Shown here piece by piece: positions 4,371 through 56,385 of a DNA stretch of 64,000 nucleotides. The stretch covers positions 57,862-121,861 of the forward strand of contig CAKOTK010000004.1 of NCBI GenBank assembly GCA_934120135.1, read 5' to 3'. Below the pieces are notes generated by a model that worked only from the letters and a program-made list of their open reading frames with translations, made no database searches and was not told the DNA's origin. Within the stretch, counting starts at the first letter, position 1. Every line of letters begins with the position of its first letter. This stretch comes from an uncultured Clostridia bacterium (GTDB taxonomy: Bacteria; Bacillota; Clostridia; TANB77; CAG-508). Position numbers and translations under genes: made by a program.

Positions 4371-5625
4371 TTTCTAGGTATTCTATTATTTTATTTGCAA
4401 CTTTTCTGCCATCACTTGCTGCCCAAGCTACAGTCGAATTTTGTCCTACTATATCTCCACCTGCAAATACTTTCTTATGTGAGGTTTGATTGTTTTCATT
4501 TACTTGTACATATTTTTTTGATGTAGTTTCAATATTGCATTTTTCTATTATATCTTTATCAACTTTTCCACCAACTGCCATAACTACGTAATCCATGTCC
4601 ATTATGTAATTGCTGTTTTCAATATTTACAGGAGACATTCTTGTTTCTCCTTCTTTTTGTACTAATTCTGTTTTTATACATTCTATCTGTTCAACCTTAT
4701 CTTTGCCTAATATTTTTACAATATTATTTAAAAATAAAAACTCAACACCTTCTTGTTTTGCATCTTCAATTTCCTTTGCTTCTGCTGGCATTTCTGCTTC
4801 TGACCTTCTATATATTACAACTACTTCTTTAGCTCCCATTCTTTTAATTGTTCTTGCACAGTCCATTGCAACATTTCCACCACCAATAATTGCAACTTTT
4901 TTATTTGTATAATCAGGATGATTTTGATTTTCTAATAATGAATTACCACCATATACTCCTTCTAGTTCTTCACCTTCAATAGCCATCTTTCTTGGCACAT
5001 TTGCTCCTATTGATAAATATATTGCGTCATATTCTTTTTCTAAATCAGCTAGTTCTAAGCTCTTTCCTAACTCTTTTTCACATTGTACCTTTACGCCAAT
5101 TGCTAAGATTTGCTCAATAGTTTTTTCTACAATTTCATTTGATAGTCTAAACTCTGGTATTCCCCTTTTTAAAATTCCACCTAAATCTTTTTGTTTTTCA
5201 TAAATTGTTACTTGGTATCCTTTTTTTCTAAGAAATGCAGCAGCTGTTAATCCTGATGGACCTCCACCAATAACTGCTACTTTTTCATTTTTTTCTTGAA
5301 TATTTTCACTATAGTTTAATAAGTTACTTGAATTATTTAATGCCCAATCTCCAACATATGCCTCTATTTCTCCAATTGAAACTGGATCTGACTTAATGCC
5401 TCTAACACATTTTCCTTGGCATTGTTTTTGGTGTGGACATATTCTGCCACATATTGATGGCATAACGGTAGTATCGCACAATATTTTATATGCTTCTTCT
5501 AAATTATCTTCTTTTACTTTTTGAATAAAAGCTGGAATATTATTTCCAAGTGGACATCCTATCCTACATTGTGGATTTTTGCAATTTAAGCAATATTCAG
5601 CTTTTTGTTTTATATTATTTTCCAT
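4363..5625 (-). CDS. GltD-family NAD(P)H-dependent FAD/Fe-S oxidoreductase (glutamate synthase small-chain-like)
   Basis: Two Cys clusters (CLNCKNPQCRIGCP, CGRICPHQKQCQGKC) and two dinucleotide-binding motifs (VAVIGGGPSG, VAIIGGGNVAMD). Confidence 0.8.
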   Translation of the reverse strand: MENNIKQKAEYCLNCKNPQCRIGCPLGNNIPAFIQKVKEDNLEEAYKILCDTTVMPSICGRICPHQKQCQGKCVRGIKSDPVSIGEIEAYVGDWALNNSSNLLNYSENIQEKNEKVAVIGGGPSGLTAAAFLRKKGYQVTIYEKQKDLGGILKRGIPEFRLSNEIVEKTIEQILAIGVKVQCEKELGKSLELADLEKEYDAIYLSIGANVPRKMAIEGEELEGVYGGNSLLENQNHPDYTNKKVAIIGGGNVAMDCARTIKRMGAKEVVVIYRRSEAEMPAEAKEIEDAKQEGVEFLFLNNIVKILGKDKVEQIECIKTELVQKEGETRMSPVNIENSNYIMDMDYVVMAVGGKVDKDIIEKCNIETTSKKYVQVNENNQTSHKKVFAGGDIVGQNSTVAWAASDGRKVANKIIEYLETK

Positions 5626-6187
5626 CTTCTACCCCTGATTTATTAAAAAATTTCACAACTTCTTTTAAATCTTTCCAAAACTCAATCTTCTTATTTTCGT
5701 CTCTAAGTAATGCAGCAGGATGCCAAGTAGGCATATACATTATTCCTTTTTGTTCTATCCATTTTCCTCTACTAGCTGTAATAGAATACTCTTTTCCTAA
5801 TACATTCTTTAAAGCTGTACTTCCTAAAAGAACTATTACCTTAGGTTTTACAAGAATTACTTGGTTGCGCAAATAATTTAAGCATGCTTCTGCTTCCTCT
5901 TGTTCTGGCACTCTATTTGCAGGTGGTCTGCATTTAACTATATTTGTTATATAAACTTCTTGTCTTTTTATTCCCAAACCTTGAAACGCTTTATTCATAA
6001 GTTGCCCTGCTTTTCCCACAAAAGGAAGTCCCTGAGTATCTTCGTCTGCACCAGGTCCTTCTCCTATAAACATTAAATCTGCTTGTTTGTTTCCCTCTCC
6101 AAAAACAATGCTTTTCCTTGTTGAACATAATTTACATCTATTACAATTTTTTATACTATTTTCTAAATCTTCCCAATTATCGTACAT
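5615..6187 (-). CDS. udg: uracil-DNA glycosylase, family 4 (Fe-S type)
   Basis: GEGPGADEDTQGLPFVGKAGQLL motif and N-terminal CxxC pair. Confidence 0.85.
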   Translation of the reverse strand: MYDNWEDLENSIKNCNRCKLCSTRKSIVFGEGNKQADLMFIGEGPGADEDTQGLPFVGKAGQLMNKAFQGLGIKRQEVYITNIVKCRPPANRVPEQEEAEACLNYLRNQVILVKPKVIVLLGSTALKNVLGKEYSITASRGKWIEQKGIMYMPTWHPAALLRDENKKIEFWKDLKEVVKFFNKSGVEDGK

Positions 6188-6214
6188 TTTTTATTTCCTT
6201 ATTTTTTATATCTG

Positions 6215-6243
6215 TTGACAATATTATAAAATATATGTATAAT
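6215..6243 (+). promoter_or_regulatory. consensus sigma-A promoter (TTGACA-17-TATAAT) firing into cassette 1
   Basis: TTGACA 6215-6220 and TATAAT 6238-6243. Predicted +1 falls on the ATAGG of the left inverted repeat (6248). Confidence 0.7.
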
Positions 6244-6248
6244 AAATA

Positions 6249-6352
6249 TAGGAAATGAATATCCGCAATAAATGCGGTTACCACTACATATAGTATAACA
6301 ACACATTCGCAAATTGGTAAATAGGAGAATGTGTTGTTATTTTATTCCTTAT
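6249..6352 (+). ncRNA. candidate ~100-nt antisense/antitoxin sRNA of cassette 1
   Basis: Starts at the consensus promoter and ends at hairpin AACAACACATTC..GAATGTGTTGTT plus ATTTTATT. Its 3' end overlaps the convergent small ORF. Confidence 0.45.
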
Positions 6353-6455
6353 CTATTATCATATTTACATATTTTATGTATAAAATCGTCAATAAGGCTA
6401 CGTTTATAGTTATAGAGGTCATAAGGGCTATTACTAAAAATAGTATCAAACTCAT
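6342..6455 (-). CDS. unannotated 37-aa hydrophobic peptide MSLILFLVIALMTSITINVALLTILYIKYVNMIIDKE (type I toxin-like)
   Basis: SD GAGGTGG 8 nt upstream of the ATG. Single transmembrane helix plus charged tail. Below the 60-aa cutoff of the ORF track. Confidence 0.6.
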   Translation of the reverse strand: MSLILFLVIALMTSITINVALLTILYIKYVNMIIDKE

Positions 6456-6537
6456 AAACACCACCTCACTTTCTGATAACTAATGTTATCAAGTGTAGTG
6501 GCAACACATACTACTATGTTCATTTCCTATATTAGTT

Positions 6538-6566
6538 AGTATAATATATCCATTTATAAAAGTCAA
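6538..6566 (-). promoter_or_regulatory. near-consensus promoter (TTGACT-17-TATACT) for the cassette-1 peptide mRNA
   Basis: Minus-strand reading. +1 falls on the right inverted repeat ATAGGAAATGAA (6519-6530). Confidence 0.6.
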
Positions 6567-6591
6567 TATAATTCAAACATTTTTTCGCATT

Positions 6592-7503
6592 TTATTTTAC
6601 ACAATCTTCCAGTAATTCTATCTTGTTTTCTAAATTAGTATCAATCTTTGCCATTGTTCCAATTGGTATAACAGTTTTCTTATCTATATGCCCAAAATTA
6701 TTAGATTTTATTATTGGAAAACTATATTCTCCATCTAAAGTATCTAACAAAATTTTCTCTATACTTACTGCCCCATCATAGTTGCCAAGCCAGATTCCTT
6801 TTATTTTGTCAAATACTCCATTTTGTTTCATATGATAAAAATAATTGCTAACTAATTCTGGTGGTGTCTCTACAAATAGTTCTTCTAAAAATAGTATTTT
6901 ATCTGTAAAATCAATACTATATTTTCCACATACCATTTCATTTACCAAGCTTAAATTACCACCAACTAAAATTCCTTTTGCCTTTCCCTCTTTAATTGTA
7001 ACATATTCATCATCTGCTTGTCCAAGGCTCAAGCCACCTTCCACAAACCTTTTCATTACTTCTTCATATCCATATTGTGTTTGCCATGAAGTTAATGCTT
7101 TAAATGTTGGTCCATGAAATGTTACTAATCCAGTTTTAGCATATATTGCATTTAATAATGATGTTGAATCACTAAATCCACATATTATTTTTGGATGATA
7201 TTTTATTGTATCATAATCTAAATAGTCAAATGTAGAGTTTGAATTAAATCCTCCTGATATGCAGAATATAGCCTTTATTTCGTTGTTCTGAAACATACAA
7301 TTTATATCCTCTGCTTTTTGCTTTGCTGTTGCTGAGTATCCTAATTTATTTGATACTGCATTTGGTGCAAATTCAATTTTAAATCCTGCACTTTCCATAA
7401 GCATTATCGAATTATTTATTGTTTCTAAATCTTCTTTTAGTACAGGGCTTGATGGTGCTATTAATCCAATAGTATCACCTTTTTTTAGTTTTTCAGGAAT
7501 CAT
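6592..7503 (-). CDS. ldcA: LD-carboxypeptidase (peptidase S66)
   Basis: GFSDSTSL serine-nucleophile motif; length and domain order typical of LdcA. Confidence 0.8.
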   Translation of the reverse strand: MIPEKLKKGDTIGLIAPSSPVLKEDLETINNSIMLMESAGFKIEFAPNAVSNKLGYSATAKQKAEDINCMFQNNEIKAIFCISGGFNSNSTFDYLDYDTIKYHPKIICGFSDSTSLLNAIYAKTGLVTFHGPTFKALTSWQTQYGYEEVMKRFVEGGLSLGQADDEYVTIKEGKAKGILVGGNLSLVNEMVCGKYSIDFTDKILFLEELFVETPPELVSNYFYHMKQNGVFDKIKGIWLGNYDGAVSIEKILLDTLDGEYSFPIIKSNNFGHIDKKTVIPIGTMAKIDTNLENKIELLEDCVK

Positions 7504-7512
7504 AATTACCTC

Positions 7513-8307
7513 CTATTTTAATGCTATTATTGCTCCATTCACTCCAAAGCTTTTTCCATCTGCTCTATATGAATGAAATTCATTTGAATGACACATTGTA
7601 CAAATATTACTGTCTATTATATTTTCTTCTTTTAAGCCTATATTTTTTAATAACTCTATGTTAATTTTTGCTGTATCAATATAGTATTTTTGCTTATCTT
7701 CTTTTTTGTCCCCTAGTTTAATTATTTCGTCAATGTTTTTTAACTCTTTGTATTTATTATAAAATAAGTCTTTTACATCTTCATCAACTTCAAAACAGCA
7801 TTGTCTTATGCTTGGACATATACAACATATAATGTCTTCAGGATTGCTCTGATATTCAGTTATCATCTTTTCTATTGCTTTTACTATTATTCCTTTTAAA
7901 GTACCTTTCCAGCCCGAATGAATACTTCCTATATCCTTCTTTACTGGATCATATAAAAGCATTGAAATGCAGTCTGCAGAAGTTGTAAGTAATGCAATAT
8001 CTTTTTTATCAGTTACTATTCCATCAACATCTTTTAGTTCATCAGTTGTTTTTACTTCATCGACTTTTTCTACTATATCTGTATGTGTTTGATATGGTCT
8101 TACAATTTGTGCATTTTCTAAATCTAGACTCTTTAATATTTTATCACAACTTTGCTTAAAAAAGTCACGATTTTTTATTTGAAAATTCAACTGATTATTA
8201 TTTCGCATTGTATAACAATGTGTTATCTCTGGATATTCTAATAATCTTTTAAATTGAATATATTCAACTCCATCTTTATTTTGATAAATTATATTTTCCA
8301 CGTGCAA
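7513..8307 (-). CDS. pgeF: YfiH/PgeF-family protein (DUF152, Cu-oxidase_4)
   Basis: TSADC and HSGWKGT motifs. Confidence 0.8.
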   Translation of the reverse strand: MHVENIIYQNKDGVEYIQFKRLLEYPEITHCYTMRNNNQLNFQIKNRDFFKQSCDKILKSLDLENAQIVRPYQTHTDIVEKVDEVKTTDELKDVDGIVTDKKDIALLTTSADCISMLLYDPVKKDIGSIHSGWKGTLKGIIVKAIEKMITEYQSNPEDIICCICPSIRQCCFEVDEDVKDLFYNKYKELKNIDEIIKLGDKKEDKQKYYIDTAKINIELLKNIGLKEENIIDSNICTMCHSNEFHSYRADGKSFGVNGAIIALK

Positions 8308-8333
8308 TTTATTTCCTCTCTATAAAGTTATTC

Positions 8334-8363
8334 TTGACAAATTTTAATCAATTGTTATATAAT
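8334..8363 (+). promoter_or_regulatory. consensus promoter (TTGACA-18-TATAAT) firing into cassette 2
   Basis: TTGACA 8334-8339 and TATAAT 8358-8363. +1 falls near the ATAGG of the left inverted repeat (8368). Confidence 0.65.
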
Positions 8364-8369
8364 AATAAT

Positions 8370-8456
8370 AGGAAATGAAAAACCACAAACGTGGTTTGCC
8401 ATATAAAATGCAAAAAGCGCATCTACAACGGTCAAATTACAGATGCGTTTTTTTTA
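8370..8456 (+). ncRNA. candidate ~87-nt antisense/antitoxin sRNA of cassette 2
   Basis: 5' hairpin AAACCACaaacGTGGTTT. Terminates at bidirectional terminator GCGCATCT..AGATGCG plus T8 (8417-8456). Confidence 0.45.
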
Positions 8457-8461
8457 TTGGT

Positions 8462-8584
8462 TTATTTCTGTTTACTCAAAATTACAGCTAATACTATAAT
8501 TAAGGCAAACGTAATGATAGTTACTCCAATTAAAGAATAATATAATATGTATATTGTTGCAATTAATGATTGTATTTCTACCAT
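8462..8584 (-). CDS. unannotated 40-aa hydrophobic peptide MVEIQSLIATIYILYYSLIGVTIITFALIIVLAVILSKQK (type I toxin-like)
   Basis: Perfect SD AAGGAGGTG 7 nt upstream. The SD can pair with an upstream CCUCC (anti-SD hairpin). Followed by the bidirectional terminator. Confidence 0.6.
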   Translation of the reverse strand: MVEIQSLIATIYILYYSLIGVTIITFALIIVLAVILSKQK

Positions 8585-8669
8585 ACGCCTCACCTCCTTG
8601 TAGGAGGCAAACCACATCTGTCTTTTTCATTTCCTATAATTATATAGTACAACATTTACTTATAAATGT

Positions 8670-11600
8670 CTAGCGAACATTTGAAATTTTTTCCAATACT
8701 TTTTCTTTATTAACATTTGGTATGTAGTTATAATTATTTTTTGTAGTTTGATTAAACTGACAAATCGCCTTATAACTACAATATTCGCAAGGTGTTTTCT
8801 TATCCCTAGTTCTATAATATGGCTCAATTCCAATGTTTCCATTTAAAATTTCTTCTGAAATTTGTTTTATAATTTTTTCCATATAATTTTGCAAGTTTTC
8901 AAATTGTTTTCTATTTAATGTATTTGGTTTGTCACTAACTTCTCCATCTTTGCCTATATATGCTGGTACAACATTAGAACTACCAGATACTAAATTTGTG
9001 TCCATTTTTCTTACAATATTACTATCTGCAAGTATAAGCCCTTGCATTTTAAATTGTTTTCTTAGTTCTTCTGTAATTTCTTCATCTGTCATATTTGGAT
9101 TTGCATTTAATACTGGATCTATTAAGTTAAAATATAATGCCCCTGCTGGTGTTACCTCTTCGTTTTCACAAGCTGCATCCAAATATGTTAATAATTGAAG
9201 TTGCAAACCTGCATACACTTCATTTAAATTTATATTTTTTATTGATGATTTATAATCTATTATTCTAATATAATTTCCATCTGCAGTTTTTGCTATATCT
9301 AATCTGTCAATTTTTCCAATTATCTCAACCTTTTTACCATCTTTTAATTCATATATAATTGGCTCATATTGGCCACCTTGTTTAAATTCAAGTTCATGTC
9401 CTAGCACTTCAAAGTCACTATATTTTAAACTATCTACAATATATTTCATAGATTTTGTAATTACTTTTTTTAACCTTTGAGCTAATATTCTGTATTTTGG
9501 AATACTATTAAATATATCATATTTTTTTAATGTTAGTTTTTCCTCAACAATATTTTCTGTAATTTGTTTTATTTGTTCTTCTTCAATATTTTTTACAGAT
9601 ATGTTTAATTCATCTAATATTTCAAAAAAGCTGTCTATTACTTCATGCATTAAATTTCCTGTATCAACAGCCTCAACATTAAAGCTATCTTTTTCTTTTA
9701 ATTTTAGTCCGTATTTTAAATAATATGAAAAAGCACAAGCTTGATATTGTTCTAGCCTTGACACACTTGTTTTTAAAGTATTACCATATAATTTTTCTAA
9801 TTTATTCTGCTTTAATTTTTCTGGCTCATTTTTATATTGTAAAGCTTTTATTGCTGACTCTAATTTTGTTTTATAATTAGCTTTATAATAATTGTATACA
9901 TCAAACCAAATAGGTTCTATTTCCTCACCCTGTGTAAAATTTCTCAAATTTACTAATAATTCATCAAATGTAGTTTTAGAAAGTAATACTTCACTTTTTC
10001 TTTCTATTACATCACTTTGTTCTTTTATATTAGGAAATATTCTTTTAATTTTATTTATTAATATTGATGCTCTTAAAGATTTTCCTTCTGCATCTGATGA
10101 AGCATAAGATAAATAAAGTTTTTCTTCTGCTGTTGTAAATGCCTTGTAAATATTAAAATTGTCGTCATAAATTTGCTCTATTGTTCCTTTTGCAAGTTCT
10201 ATTCCTTGCTCTTTTAATATATTTCTATCTTTATCATCTAAAAATCCTTCATCTTTTTGTATACTTGGAAAACTTCCATCATTTAGACCTATAATAAATA
10301 CTGCCTTTACTTTATGTGATCTTGAACGGTCTACATCTCCTACCATTACTTGATCTGCAGTTGCAGGAATTGTACCTAAGTCACTTTGATTAAAGCCCAT
10401 TTTTAATATTTTTGCATATCTATCAAAAGTTATATTTTTATTTCCTAAAACTAATACTATTTCATCAAATAAATCGGTTAAAATTTTAATACTTAATTCA
10501 TATTGTTTTGCAATTTCTAGTTCATTATTTTGTTTCAATTCCTCAATTTTTTGTTCTAGCTTTTCATATATATTATTTTGAACTAAAAATTCATATAATC
10601 CAGTTGTTATTTCTTTTACTGTTTTTAATCCTGCTAACTGTTTTTTGAATTTCAAAAGAGGTTCTACAACTTTATCTCTTGCATATACTATTTGCTTTTG
10701 TTGCTCTTCTGTTTCATTATAAAAACTCCACTCTTTTGCATACCATTTACTTCCTTTTATGCCCCATTTTAAGCAATAATTTTCTAATACAGCTATTTCT
10801 TGTGTATCTAAATCTAATAATCCTGTTTTTATATAACCAAAAACAGATTCATAAGACCAGTTCTTTGCAAATATCTCTAGTAAAGATAGTACATATCTTA
10901 CTAAAATATTGCTTCCTAGGTCTTTTTTCTCATCTATAAAAACTGGTATATTATATTGCTCAAAAATTGCTTTGCATAAACTTGAATATGTATCTATATT
11001 TTTTGTAATTACAGCCATTTCTTCATATTTGTAGCCTTGTTTTGCAAGTTTTGTTATTTGTATTGCAACATTTTCTATTTCAGAATATGGATTACTTGCT
11101 AAAAATATAGATAAGTTCTCATTTTGTTTATCGTATTTTTTATAAAAAGGGGATGCCATATTTTCTGCTAGATGTTGTAATTCTTCAGTTTTAAATCTGT
11201 ATGGCGTATTTAGAAAAATTGGTTTTTCTACTTCTATTTGCTCTTGGTTTGCAATTTCTAAAATCCTTTTTACTGTTTGCTTATTGCTATAAAATGTGTC
11301 TATATCAGCATTTGTGTTTTCTTGTAAATTATCTGCACAAATTGTTATTGTAATTTTGTGTGATATTTTCATAAGTTTTCTTAAAATTTCATATTCTTGT
11401 AAAGTGAAACCTGCAAATTCGTCAATATATATATCACAGTTTTTAAATTCATTTGACTCTTCTAACTCTTCTGCCAAAAGAGTTAATCCATCATTTTCAT
11501 CAATATATTGGTTTTGAATTGAATTATTATATAAATCATATAAATTTGTAATATCTTCAAGCTTTTTTTGTAGGTATTTATCTTGAGTATTTTTAGTAAC

Positions 11601-56153: not shown

Positions 56154-56204
56154 ATTAGCACTAGGAATACAAATTAAAAAAATATCCTTTAGGAGGGTTG
56201 TATA

Positions 56205-56385
56205 TATTTAGCGCCAGGACAGTGTTTATACACTGTTGACGAGGTTAGAGCTTATCGAAAGATTCGGCGGATGGCTCTATGGCATGCGTTACTGCCATTA
56301 CATATTAACAAAAAAATTATAGTGATATAATATAACAAATTTAATATGAGTGCGCTTTAATTTGTATGCCTTACTTTAAATTTTA
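56205..56385 (+). ncRNA. glmS ribozyme: glmS ribozyme (GlcN6P-dependent self-cleaving riboswitch)
   Basis: Core AGCGCCAGGAC...GACGAGG...TATCGAAAGATTCGGCGGATG matches the glmS ribozyme P1-P2.2 consensus; located in the glmS 5' UTR. Confidence 0.8.

Follow-up and report, generated by a model that had tools for sequence, protein, structure and literature searches.

The window analyzed here, a 64,000-nucleotide (nt) stretch of contig CAKOTK010000004.1 from an uncultured Clostridia bacterium, contains a ~392-bp cassette (cassette 1, positions 6200–6591, counted without regard to strand) inserted between the stop codon of LdcA, an LD-carboxypeptidase, and the ribosome-binding site of UDG, a uracil-DNA glycosylase. 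We conclude that cassette 1 is probably a chromosomal module of the type I toxin-antitoxin-like kind, composed of a small peptide gene and a cis-antisense RNA, and that it represents a previously undescribed family. The two predicted transcripts converge, and each begins at one of two inverted copies of a 12-nt repeat, ATAGGAAATGAA, for which we use the name X in both copies. Judged from genome and metagenome assemblies, the family is widespread in uncultured gut Clostridia. An earlier note on this DNA had proposed the type I-like reading, which is now supported by comparative sequence evidence from the open reading frame (ORF), the promoters, the stem around the Shine-Dalgarno (SD) sequence, and the module as a whole. 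Toxin-antitoxin modules of type I are a known general kind, while the family and its architecture appear from these comparisons to be new.

On the plus strand, a TTGACA-17-TATAAT promoter (6215–6243) that matches the consensus at 12 of 12 positions ends 4 nt before the first copy of X (6248–6259). This copy would form the 5' end of an antisense RNA, the candidate antitoxin, of ~100 nt with predicted ends at 6248 and 6348, while its complement would make up the U-rich 3' end of the peptide mRNA. The antisense RNA is predicted to consist, in order, of X, a small hairpin, GTTACCACTACA, a terminator hairpin, and a U-run. On the minus strand, a TTGACT-17-TATACT promoter (6566–6538) lies 7 nt upstream of the other copy of X (6519–6530), the predicted 5' end of the peptide mRNA. 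The SD sequence GAGGTGG (6467–6461) lies 5 nt upstream of the ATG (6455) of a 37-amino-acid (aa) ORF, MSLILFLVIALMTSITINVALLTILYIKYVNMIIDKE, which spans 6455–6342 on the minus strand including its stop codon. Both promoters, both copies of X, the SD sequence, and the ORF stand where the earlier note had placed them. The terminator hairpin described there also exists, although the interval given for it (6318–6350) was wrong and takes in only the 3' arm and the tail; the hairpin, which we call hairpin 1 (6296–6340, common to both strands), has a 14-bp stem with arms at 6296–6309 and 6327–6340, a loop of ~17 nt, and, on the plus strand, a TTTTATT tail at 6341–6348. It follows directly after the stop codon of the peptide ORF and would act as the terminator of the antisense RNA, and its loops are complementary between the two RNAs.

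The predicted full-length peptide mRNA comprises 283 nt on the minus strand (6530–6248), with a 75-nt 5' untranslated region (UTR) and a 94-nt 3' UTR counted from the stop codon to the far X. The last figure supports, as an inference, the ~90-nt overlap that had been proposed for the 3' ends of the two RNAs. Within the 5' leader of the mRNA, the segment M2 (GTTGCCACTACA, 6494–6505, minus strand) doubles as an anti-SD element, and a small hairpin (TGATAAC-ATTA-GTTATCA, 6474–6491, minus strand) sits inside the stem that anti-SD and SD would form. The 3' arm contains, on the minus strand, M2' (TGTAGTGGTAAC, 6277–6288), an inner segment complementary to M2 (inverted repeat I16), and hairpin 2 (CCGCATTTATTGCGG, 6263–6277) followed by ATATTCATTTCC, a candidate terminator of the peptide mRNA that corresponds on the plus strand to the 5' stem-loop of the antisense RNA. 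The peptide genes of cassette 1 and of a second cassette in the window were both left uncalled by gene callers. The ORF table holds the cassette 1 gene as a 40-aa version with a GTG start; this GTG overlaps the SD sequence, and the homologues begin at the ATG.

Promoter-like sites are frequent in the DNA of the window (28% GC), where 20 were found against 12.3 expected. A chance origin of cassette 1 is nevertheless excluded, because the 64 kb contain just four exact matches to X, arranged as two inverted pairs with spacings of 259 and 246 nt, and because both promoters recur at fixed spacing in 76–77 homologous cassettes. The homologues come from two scans. A scan of metagenome-assembled genomes (MAGs), one genome per species, for X followed by 235–265 nt and the reverse complement of X, a search for further X-flanked cassettes of the kind that the earlier note had suggested, returned 84 cassettes at 82 species-level loci, all in MAGs of uncultured gut Clostridia (e.g., Clostridium sp. 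CAG:492 and CAG:567). An independent metagenome scan, queried with the string from SD to ATG so that X was left free, yielded at least 120 contigs.

The earlier note had made its reading depend on the preservation of the ORF in homologous regions. In all 84 cassettes of the MAG loci the ORF is intact, encodes 30–43 aa, and stands behind a strong SD sequence; among the matches listed for the metagenome scan, which include 77 distinct complete cassettes, 74 have it intact and the other three have it shortened to 16–25 codons. The ratio of nonsynonymous to synonymous polymorphism (pN/pS) is 0.38–0.73 in frame and about 0.7–1.8 out of frame, the contrast being smallest in the peptide group that we call family B, and codon position 2 is the least variable position of the ORF. 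These data bear on the idea that the cassette is a non-coding repeat, such as a miniature inverted-repeat transposable element (MITE) or an intergenic terminator or regulatory palindrome, in which ORF and promoters arose incidentally in AT-rich DNA. Such an element would likewise be bounded by inverted repeats, present in many copies, and polymorphic for insertion and deletion, and the abundance of promoter-like hexamers in the window would fit it as well. It would not account for an ORF that is intact throughout and under purifying selection in frame, for the conserved SD sequence, or for the excess of G·U pairs on one strand described below, which points to selection on RNA and not on DNA. 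Moreover, the inverted repeats lie inside the promoters and not at the ends of the element, and the insertion boundaries show neither a target-site duplication nor a terminal inverted repeat. We consider this explanation largely refuted by the constrained ORF, the lack of MITE-type ends, and the G·U excess on the mRNA strand, and exceedingly improbable.

The cassette 1 peptide reads as hydrophobic from about residue 2 to residue 27, with one predicted transmembrane segment, followed by the polar and charged tail KYVNMIIDKE. Type I toxins are typically small (<60 aa) and hydrophobic, with a single predicted transmembrane segment and a C-terminus that is polar or charged, and the peptide has each of these properties. 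The homologues fall into three groups, namely family A, which includes cassette 1, family B (MIEAVLLEIIYLL...FALII..ILSK), and a third group that includes cassette 2. In family A, Asn18 is invariant at the middle of the hydrophobic helix, and Ser14 and Leu21-Leu22 are conserved; the position of this Asn within the membrane suggests that the peptide could form oligomers or associate helix to helix. The resemblance to Fst, TxpA, and BsrG toxins proposed earlier holds for this architecture but does not extend to homology: the comparison with known toxin families by hidden Markov model (HMM) gave no match for the peptides in Pfam or NCBIfam even at E ≤ 10, and the defining features of par/Fst systems are lacking, as discussed below. 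A profile search of 5.8 billion proteins, with an alignment headed by the 40-aa GTG-start version, recovered 194 protein clusters; each is unnamed or labelled 'hypothetical', and Pfam domains are absent from all of them. Literature searches with peptide-motif strings gave no result, and the 12-mer matched unrelated papers only.

The two promoters differ in strength throughout the family. The antisense promoter, TTGAC(A/T)-17-TATAAT, is present 4 nt before X in 76 of 77 cassettes with a mean score of 11.7 of 12, whereas the peptide promoter, TTGnnn-17-TATA(C/G)T, is weaker (mean 8.7 of 12), its −10 box lying 7 nt before X in 71 of 77. Scored from the last G-C pair of the stem, a procedure under which a few family B/C sequences parse badly, a U-rich tract follows hairpin 1 on the antisense strand in 65 of 78 cassettes and on the mRNA strand in 14 of 78. 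By this measure, hairpin 1 is a good terminator on the antisense strand only. An antisense RNA gene with a promoter and a terminator of its own, as expected of a type I system, is thus predicted from sequence in most of the family (76/77 for the promoter, 65/78 for the terminator). For the peptide mRNA, the only terminator-like site in a scan of 5500–7500 is hairpin 2 (6277–6263, minus strand), which is followed by ATATTCATTT, the complement of X; among homologues, both partners have changed at 5 of the 9 pairs of hairpin 2.

Because the DNA repeats are inverted, the two RNAs begin with the same, not with complementary, sequence. The identity extends past X, as both RNAs of cassette 1 continue with GTT(G/A)CCACTACA (M2) and both RNAs of cassette 2 with GTGGTTTGCC. 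The inverted repeats had previously been taken for shared start sites, a description that stands but is incomplete, since they are also the ends of a covarying helix that closes the peptide mRNA from 5' to 3'. When the 283-nt minus-strand RNA is folded, nt 1–38 pair with the last 42 nt (minimum free energy [MFE] −85 kcal/mol, z = −7.4), and the end duplex of cassette 1 has an energy of −38.4 kcal/mol. In this fold, the X at 6519–6530 pairs with 6248–6259 and forms with it the outer portion of a ~38-nt helix that links the first nucleotides of the mRNA to its last, and across the family the probability that X is paired with its reverse complement is 0.95. Pairing is not confined to X: with X removed, cognate arms pair at −26 kcal/mol, arms combined across families at −18 to −20 kcal/mol, and shuffled arms at −11.5 kcal/mol.

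In an alignment of 78 sequences, 84.8–86.0% of the cells of the named structure are paired versus 34–52% in slid controls, and none of 500 shuffles reached as high a value. The M2:M2' helix is 78.8% paired in the same 78 sequences, with 8 of its 17 pairs changed on both sides, and compensatory pairs are found at 7 of 7 positions of the small 5'-UTR hairpin and at 7 of 14 of hairpin 1. With the mixed-family alignment, RNAalifold missed the M2:M2' helix owing to the alignment register, and this helix was tested by duplex energies and by the named structure. X itself varies where the search leaves it free, and there the two arms change together (ATAGAAAATGAG/CTCATTTTCTAT, GTAGGGAATAAG/CTTATTTCCTAC, and ATAGGAAACAAA/TTTGTTTCCTAT), with compensatory variants found at loci L066 and L069 and in the metagenome set. 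Taken over 26 combinations of X arms, the count is 14 for compensated pairs, 26 for G·U pairs, and 11 for A·C pairs.

The sequence of the end helix also indicates which strand is under selection. A G·U pair on the mRNA strand corresponds to an A·C mismatch on the other strand, and the end helix is more stable on the mRNA strand (−39.8 kcal/mol) than on the opposite strand (−32.9 kcal/mol), being better in 63 of 66 unique cassettes (p = 7.5e-12). The asymmetry was replicated in an unbiased sample, in 56 of 57 cassettes among the matches listed. Therefore, the strand-specific excess of G·U pairs argues for selection on an RNA that holds both arms, which requires the peptide mRNA to extend to the far X, where we place its probable 3' end.

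The same 5' leader appears to control access to the ribosome-binding site. The 3' edge of M2 is formed by GCCACU, which pairs across the small hairpin with GGUGG in the SD sequence, and this SD stem is 93.8% paired in the family, in which the SD sequence is invariant or nearly so. By eye, the anti-SD changes together with the SD sequence, as in cassette 2 (GCCUCCU/AGGAGGU) and at locus L017 (CCUUUAAUUC/GGAUUGGAGG). GCCACU can instead pair with M2' in the 3' arm, where the alternative partner of GCCAC is GUGGY, and the SD stem and the M2:M2' helix share alignment columns 36–44. The cassette thus carries the cis elements by which type I mRNAs are held untranslated, namely an SD/anti-SD stem, a 5'-3' interaction, and terminator stem-loops (PMC8594479).

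The antisense RNA folds with an MFE of −27.3 kcal/mol (z = −4.5), its terminator having an unusually large loop of ~17 nt; when the MFE model is set aside, the X at its 5' end is for the most part unpaired. Its gene lies wholly inside the 94-nt 3' UTR of the mRNA, within the 3' arm, and is a near-copy of the 5' leader of the mRNA. Pairing in trans of the par type was considered and rejected, as the 5' half of the antisense RNA pairs with mRNA nt 1–110 at −19.3 kcal/mol and thus no better than shuffled sequence (−17.9 kcal/mol). Since there is no complementarity beyond chance to the 5' and start region of the mRNA, any interaction of the antisense RNA would be with the 3' UTR and would therefore set this RNA against the 5' leader of the same mRNA in a competition for the 3' arm. 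Covariance models from Rfam matched only glmS in the window at gathering score, and a search of 6000–8900 at E ≤ 10 gave nothing in cassette 1.

These results speak to membership in the par/Fst-RNA II family, whose reference is par of Enterococcus faecalis plasmid pAD1. Convergent promoters, a shared terminator hairpin, a 5' stem-loop that sequesters the SD sequence, and a sequestered mRNA 5' end are hallmarks of par (PMC7472228), and the cassette has a counterpart of each. The terminator shared by the two par RNAs is bidirectional; hairpin 1 is shared as well, with a good U-tract on the antisense strand in 65 of 78 cassettes and on the mRNA strand in only 14 of 78. Unlike par, the cassette lacks the direct repeats DRa and DRb that provide 5' complementarity; its repeats are inverted, and the 5' regions of its RNAs are identical and not complementary. 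The 5' end of the par mRNA pairs with an internal segment, while that of the cassette pairs with the very 3' end. Fst-type toxins carry a PXXXG(C) motif in the hydrophobic domain (PMC7472228), yet this motif is absent and there is no proline at all in 17 aligned family-A peptides, nor did Pfam or NCBIfam return an Fst match at E ≤ 10. Together with the failure of the antisense 5' half to pair with the mRNA 5' region better than shuffled sequence, the motif, HMM, and repeat tests refute membership in par/Fst, which we regard as having next to no likelihood.

Under the type I-like reading, the following course of events can be proposed. The weak sigma-A-type promoter would yield a ~283-nt mRNA (6530 to about 6248) for the 37-aa candidate toxin, and the consensus plus-strand promoter would yield the ~100-nt antisense RNA (6248 to about 6348). 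The mRNA would pass hairpin 1, end in the U-rich complement of X, and close end to end into a stable, poorly translated form in which the SD sequence is buried. The antisense RNA, presumably abundant and a perfect complement of the 3' arm, would dock, probably through the complementary loops of hairpin 1, and invade the 3' arm, displacing the 5' leader. Displacement would create a ~95-bp duplex, a likely substrate of RNase III, expose the 5' end of the mRNA to RNase J/Y, and free the anti-SD to hold the SD sequence, so that the peptide would not be made. Were the supply of antisense RNA to fall, the closed mRNA would persist and the peptide would be made, insert into the membrane, and perhaps oligomerize. 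We offer this specific displacement mechanism tentatively, as one that is at best about evenly balanced between right and wrong. A bolder formulation, conceivable although we lean against it, holds that the mRNA carries a mimic of its own antitoxin: the 5' leader would be a diverged copy of the antisense RNA that sits, through G·U-rich pairing, on the antisense target site and close the mRNA end to end. Regulation would then be a three-way contest of strand displacement, with the 3' arm sought by both the leader and the antisense RNA and the GCCAC anti-SD by both the 3' arm and the SD sequence, in a new mobile family of toxins with a mid-membrane Asn.

The distribution of the cassette indicates that it is an autonomous, mobile module. 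In two close relatives (loci L041 and L019), the neighboring proteins share 87–99% aa identity with those of the window and only ~15 nt separate LdcA from UDG; cassette 1 is therefore a ~392-bp insertion (6200–6591). Direct reading of the sequence at boundaries 6200 and 6591 reveals neither a target-site duplication nor a terminal inverted repeat. The 116 proteins that flank the MAG loci fall into 95 clusters, and ~58 cassettes occupy about 53 contexts. Scans of IMG/VR, of a phage collection, and of a plasmid collection found no similar cassette. Additional copies lie near some of the MAG-locus cassettes, and two decayed orphan copies (L080:5771–5995 and L040:4168–4423) have lost peptide ORF, SD sequence, and promoter but keep a recognizable antisense side, with the complement of X, with hairpin 2, and with its promoter in degraded form.

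These features help to weigh the main alternative, in which the peptide is a small membrane protein that is not toxic, such as an accessory or regulatory subunit, under cis-antisense control and without a role as an addiction or stress toxin. Toxicity of the peptide is a prediction, and the lack of homology to known toxins, together with the chromosomal location of the copies and their absence from the phage and plasmid collections, would suit such a protein. An accessory protein specific to one partner would not be expected, however, to move as a unit among unrelated contexts, to be present or absent between close relatives, or to occur as several paralogous cassettes per genome region. The combination of a strong antisense promoter with a weak peptide promoter, a sequestered SD sequence, and a closed mRNA points to expression that is off by default, and in decayed copies the peptide side is lost first. 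We judge this alternative unlikely, but appreciably less so than either of the two discussed above.

Several points nonetheless count against the toxin-antitoxin-like interpretation or limit its details. The putative toxin matches no known toxin family in Pfam or NCBIfam, and, unlike many addiction modules, the cassette has no copies in the phage and plasmid collections. We infer from sequence the transcription starts, both 3' ends, and the read-through of the mRNA past hairpin 1. In cassette 2 (hairpin at 8413–8453) and in part of family B, U-runs follow hairpin 1 on both strands, so that part of the mRNA may terminate at this point, short of the 3' arm. The X helix contains the 11 A·C mismatches counted above, and the uniformity of X among the MAG loci follows from the search pattern, which demanded an exact copy at both ends. 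Phylogeny relates the sequences to one another, so that the p-values overstate their independence. Finally, partition-function folding gives a probability of 0.20 that the SD sequence is unpaired in the full-length mRNA and of 0.14 when the 3' UTR is blocked; with the SD sequence mostly paired in every modeled state, support is weak for a switch in translation set off by the antisense RNA, which enters the proposed mechanism as a minor component only.

Among known systems, the cassette appears closest in layout and sizes to the 3'-overlap systems of Clostridioides difficile and Bacillus subtilis. Hallmarks of type I toxin mRNAs include SD/anti-SD stems, 3' terminators, and long-distance 5'-3' interactions (PMC8594479). 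The C. difficile modules CD2517.1/RCd8, CD2907.1/RCd9, CD0956.2/RCd10, and CD0977.1/RCd11 have mRNAs of ~300 nt with 5' UTRs of 83–88 nt and the ribosome-binding site in a double-stranded region, as well as antisense RNAs of 134–140 nt that overlap the mRNA by 131–134 nt (PMC5961336), and their toxins are small and hydrophobic, with 34–53 aa and charged C-termini (PMC7699646). Cassette 1, with a 283-nt mRNA, a 75-nt 5' UTR, an antisense RNA of ~100 nt, and an overlap of ~95–100 nt, is comparable to these modules, and it shares with those modules the class Clostridia and convergent, 3'-overlapping transcripts. The C. difficile modules lie beside CRISPR arrays or in prophages, whereas the cassettes occupy varied chromosomal contexts and were found in neither the phage nor the plasmid collection. 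The comparison with these toxins concerns layout and size and not sequence; the profile search returned unnamed proteins only. An end-to-end mRNA helix and a 5' sequence shared by toxin and antitoxin RNA are not mentioned in the excerpted descriptions of the C. difficile modules.

In the B. subtilis pairs TxpA/RatA and BsrG/SR4 (also BsrE/SR5 and YonT/SR6), the antisense gene lies on the 3' side and its RNA overlaps the 3' end of the mRNA (PMC8594479), and the RNA duplex is a substrate of RNase III (PMC5961336). The 3' overlap predicted for the cassette resembles this arrangement. SR4 binding at the bsrG 3' end also tightens the structure that sequesters the SD sequence, and such action at a distance is of the kind considered here for the cassette antisense RNA. 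Unlike TxpA and BsrG, for which we assume that the libraries hold models, the cassette peptides have no match in Pfam or NCBIfam at E ≤ 10. A further difference is that, in the cassette, the 5' leader of the mRNA nearly duplicates the antisense RNA and pairs with the site that the antisense RNA would target. The B. subtilis antisense RNAs overlap their mRNAs in part (PMC8594479), whereas that of the cassette is predicted to be fully nested in the 3' UTR.

Outside this group, the hok and AapA1 mRNAs offer a parallel to end-to-end closure. In hok, whose long-distance interaction involves the fbi and tac elements, and in AapA1, the antisense RNA targets the 5' and translation-initiation region, and 3' trimming activates the mRNA. 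As in hok/Sok and AapA1/IsoA1, where the full-length mRNA is locked by 5'/3' pairing (PMC8594479), the predicted cassette mRNA is closed, yet its antisense RNA would target the 3' arm of the closing helix, and hosts and peptide families are different. A 3'-located, fully nested antisense RNA directed at the closing helix, as predicted here, is not among the organizations given for Gram-positive type I families (PMC8594479).

The locus signature is concrete, widely distributed, and easily recognized, and could be used to annotate hundreds of MAGs. The peptides form a new family with an invariant polar residue in mid-membrane, and the natural compensatory variants provide a test of 5'/3' closure of a toxin mRNA against an antisense RNA aimed at the closing helix. 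If the mimic formulation is true, a new mobile family of toxins with a mid-membrane Asn would be abundant in uncultured Clostridia of human and animal guts.

The second cassette of the window (8330–8680) has the same layout as cassette 1, ~2 kb away, with X at 8368–8379 (plus strand) and 8626–8637 (minus strand), and the two cassettes flank the YfiH-LdcA gene pair. It encodes a 40-aa hydrophobic peptide, MVEIQSLIATIYILYYSLIGVTIITFALIIVLAVILSKQK (about 8462–8584, minus strand), behind the SD sequence GGAGGTGAGG; the peptide belongs to a family other than that of cassette 1, and the cassette is kept at the same site at loci L019, L041, and L073. Its predicted antisense RNA gave, as the sole Rfam match of cassette 2 in the search of 6000–8900, a sub-threshold match over 8375–8451 (plus strand) to RF02844, RefA9, an Enterococcus antisense small RNA (21 bits where the gathering score is 49; E = 4.4), which is probably driven by the terminator. 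Paired cassettes within a few kb of each other were also seen at L066 (337–620 and 801–1073) and at L069 (642–919 and 2515–2802), where each cassette has its own variant of X, altered in parallel on both arms; such variants could prevent cross-talk between neighbors.

At the cassette 1 insertion site, the LdcA-UDG junction (6184–6200), which is tight in relatives (~15 nt; L041:3700–3730), is split, and the region of the UDG ribosome-binding site just beyond the insert (TTTATTTCCT) resembles the core of the X complement. UDG expression may suffer a polar effect from the insertion, or homology may have guided the choice of site. Lying inside the LdcA-UDG operon, the cassette may affect the expression of a DNA-repair gene in this strain.

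A GTTCGC-like motif immediately precedes the −35 box of the peptide promoter on its 5' side, at about −42 to −37 from X, in cassettes of all three peptide groups (for example, in the complement of 8671–8678 of the window), while cassette 1 is without it; it could be a regulator half-site. A LexA-type box was considered for this motif and rejected, as by eye it presents a half-site only and occurs in just 28 of 76 cassettes. Elsewhere in the window, the glmS match noted above is the ribozyme/riboswitch RF00234 at 56199–56358 on the plus strand (97.8 bits), an ordinary feature of Bacillota.

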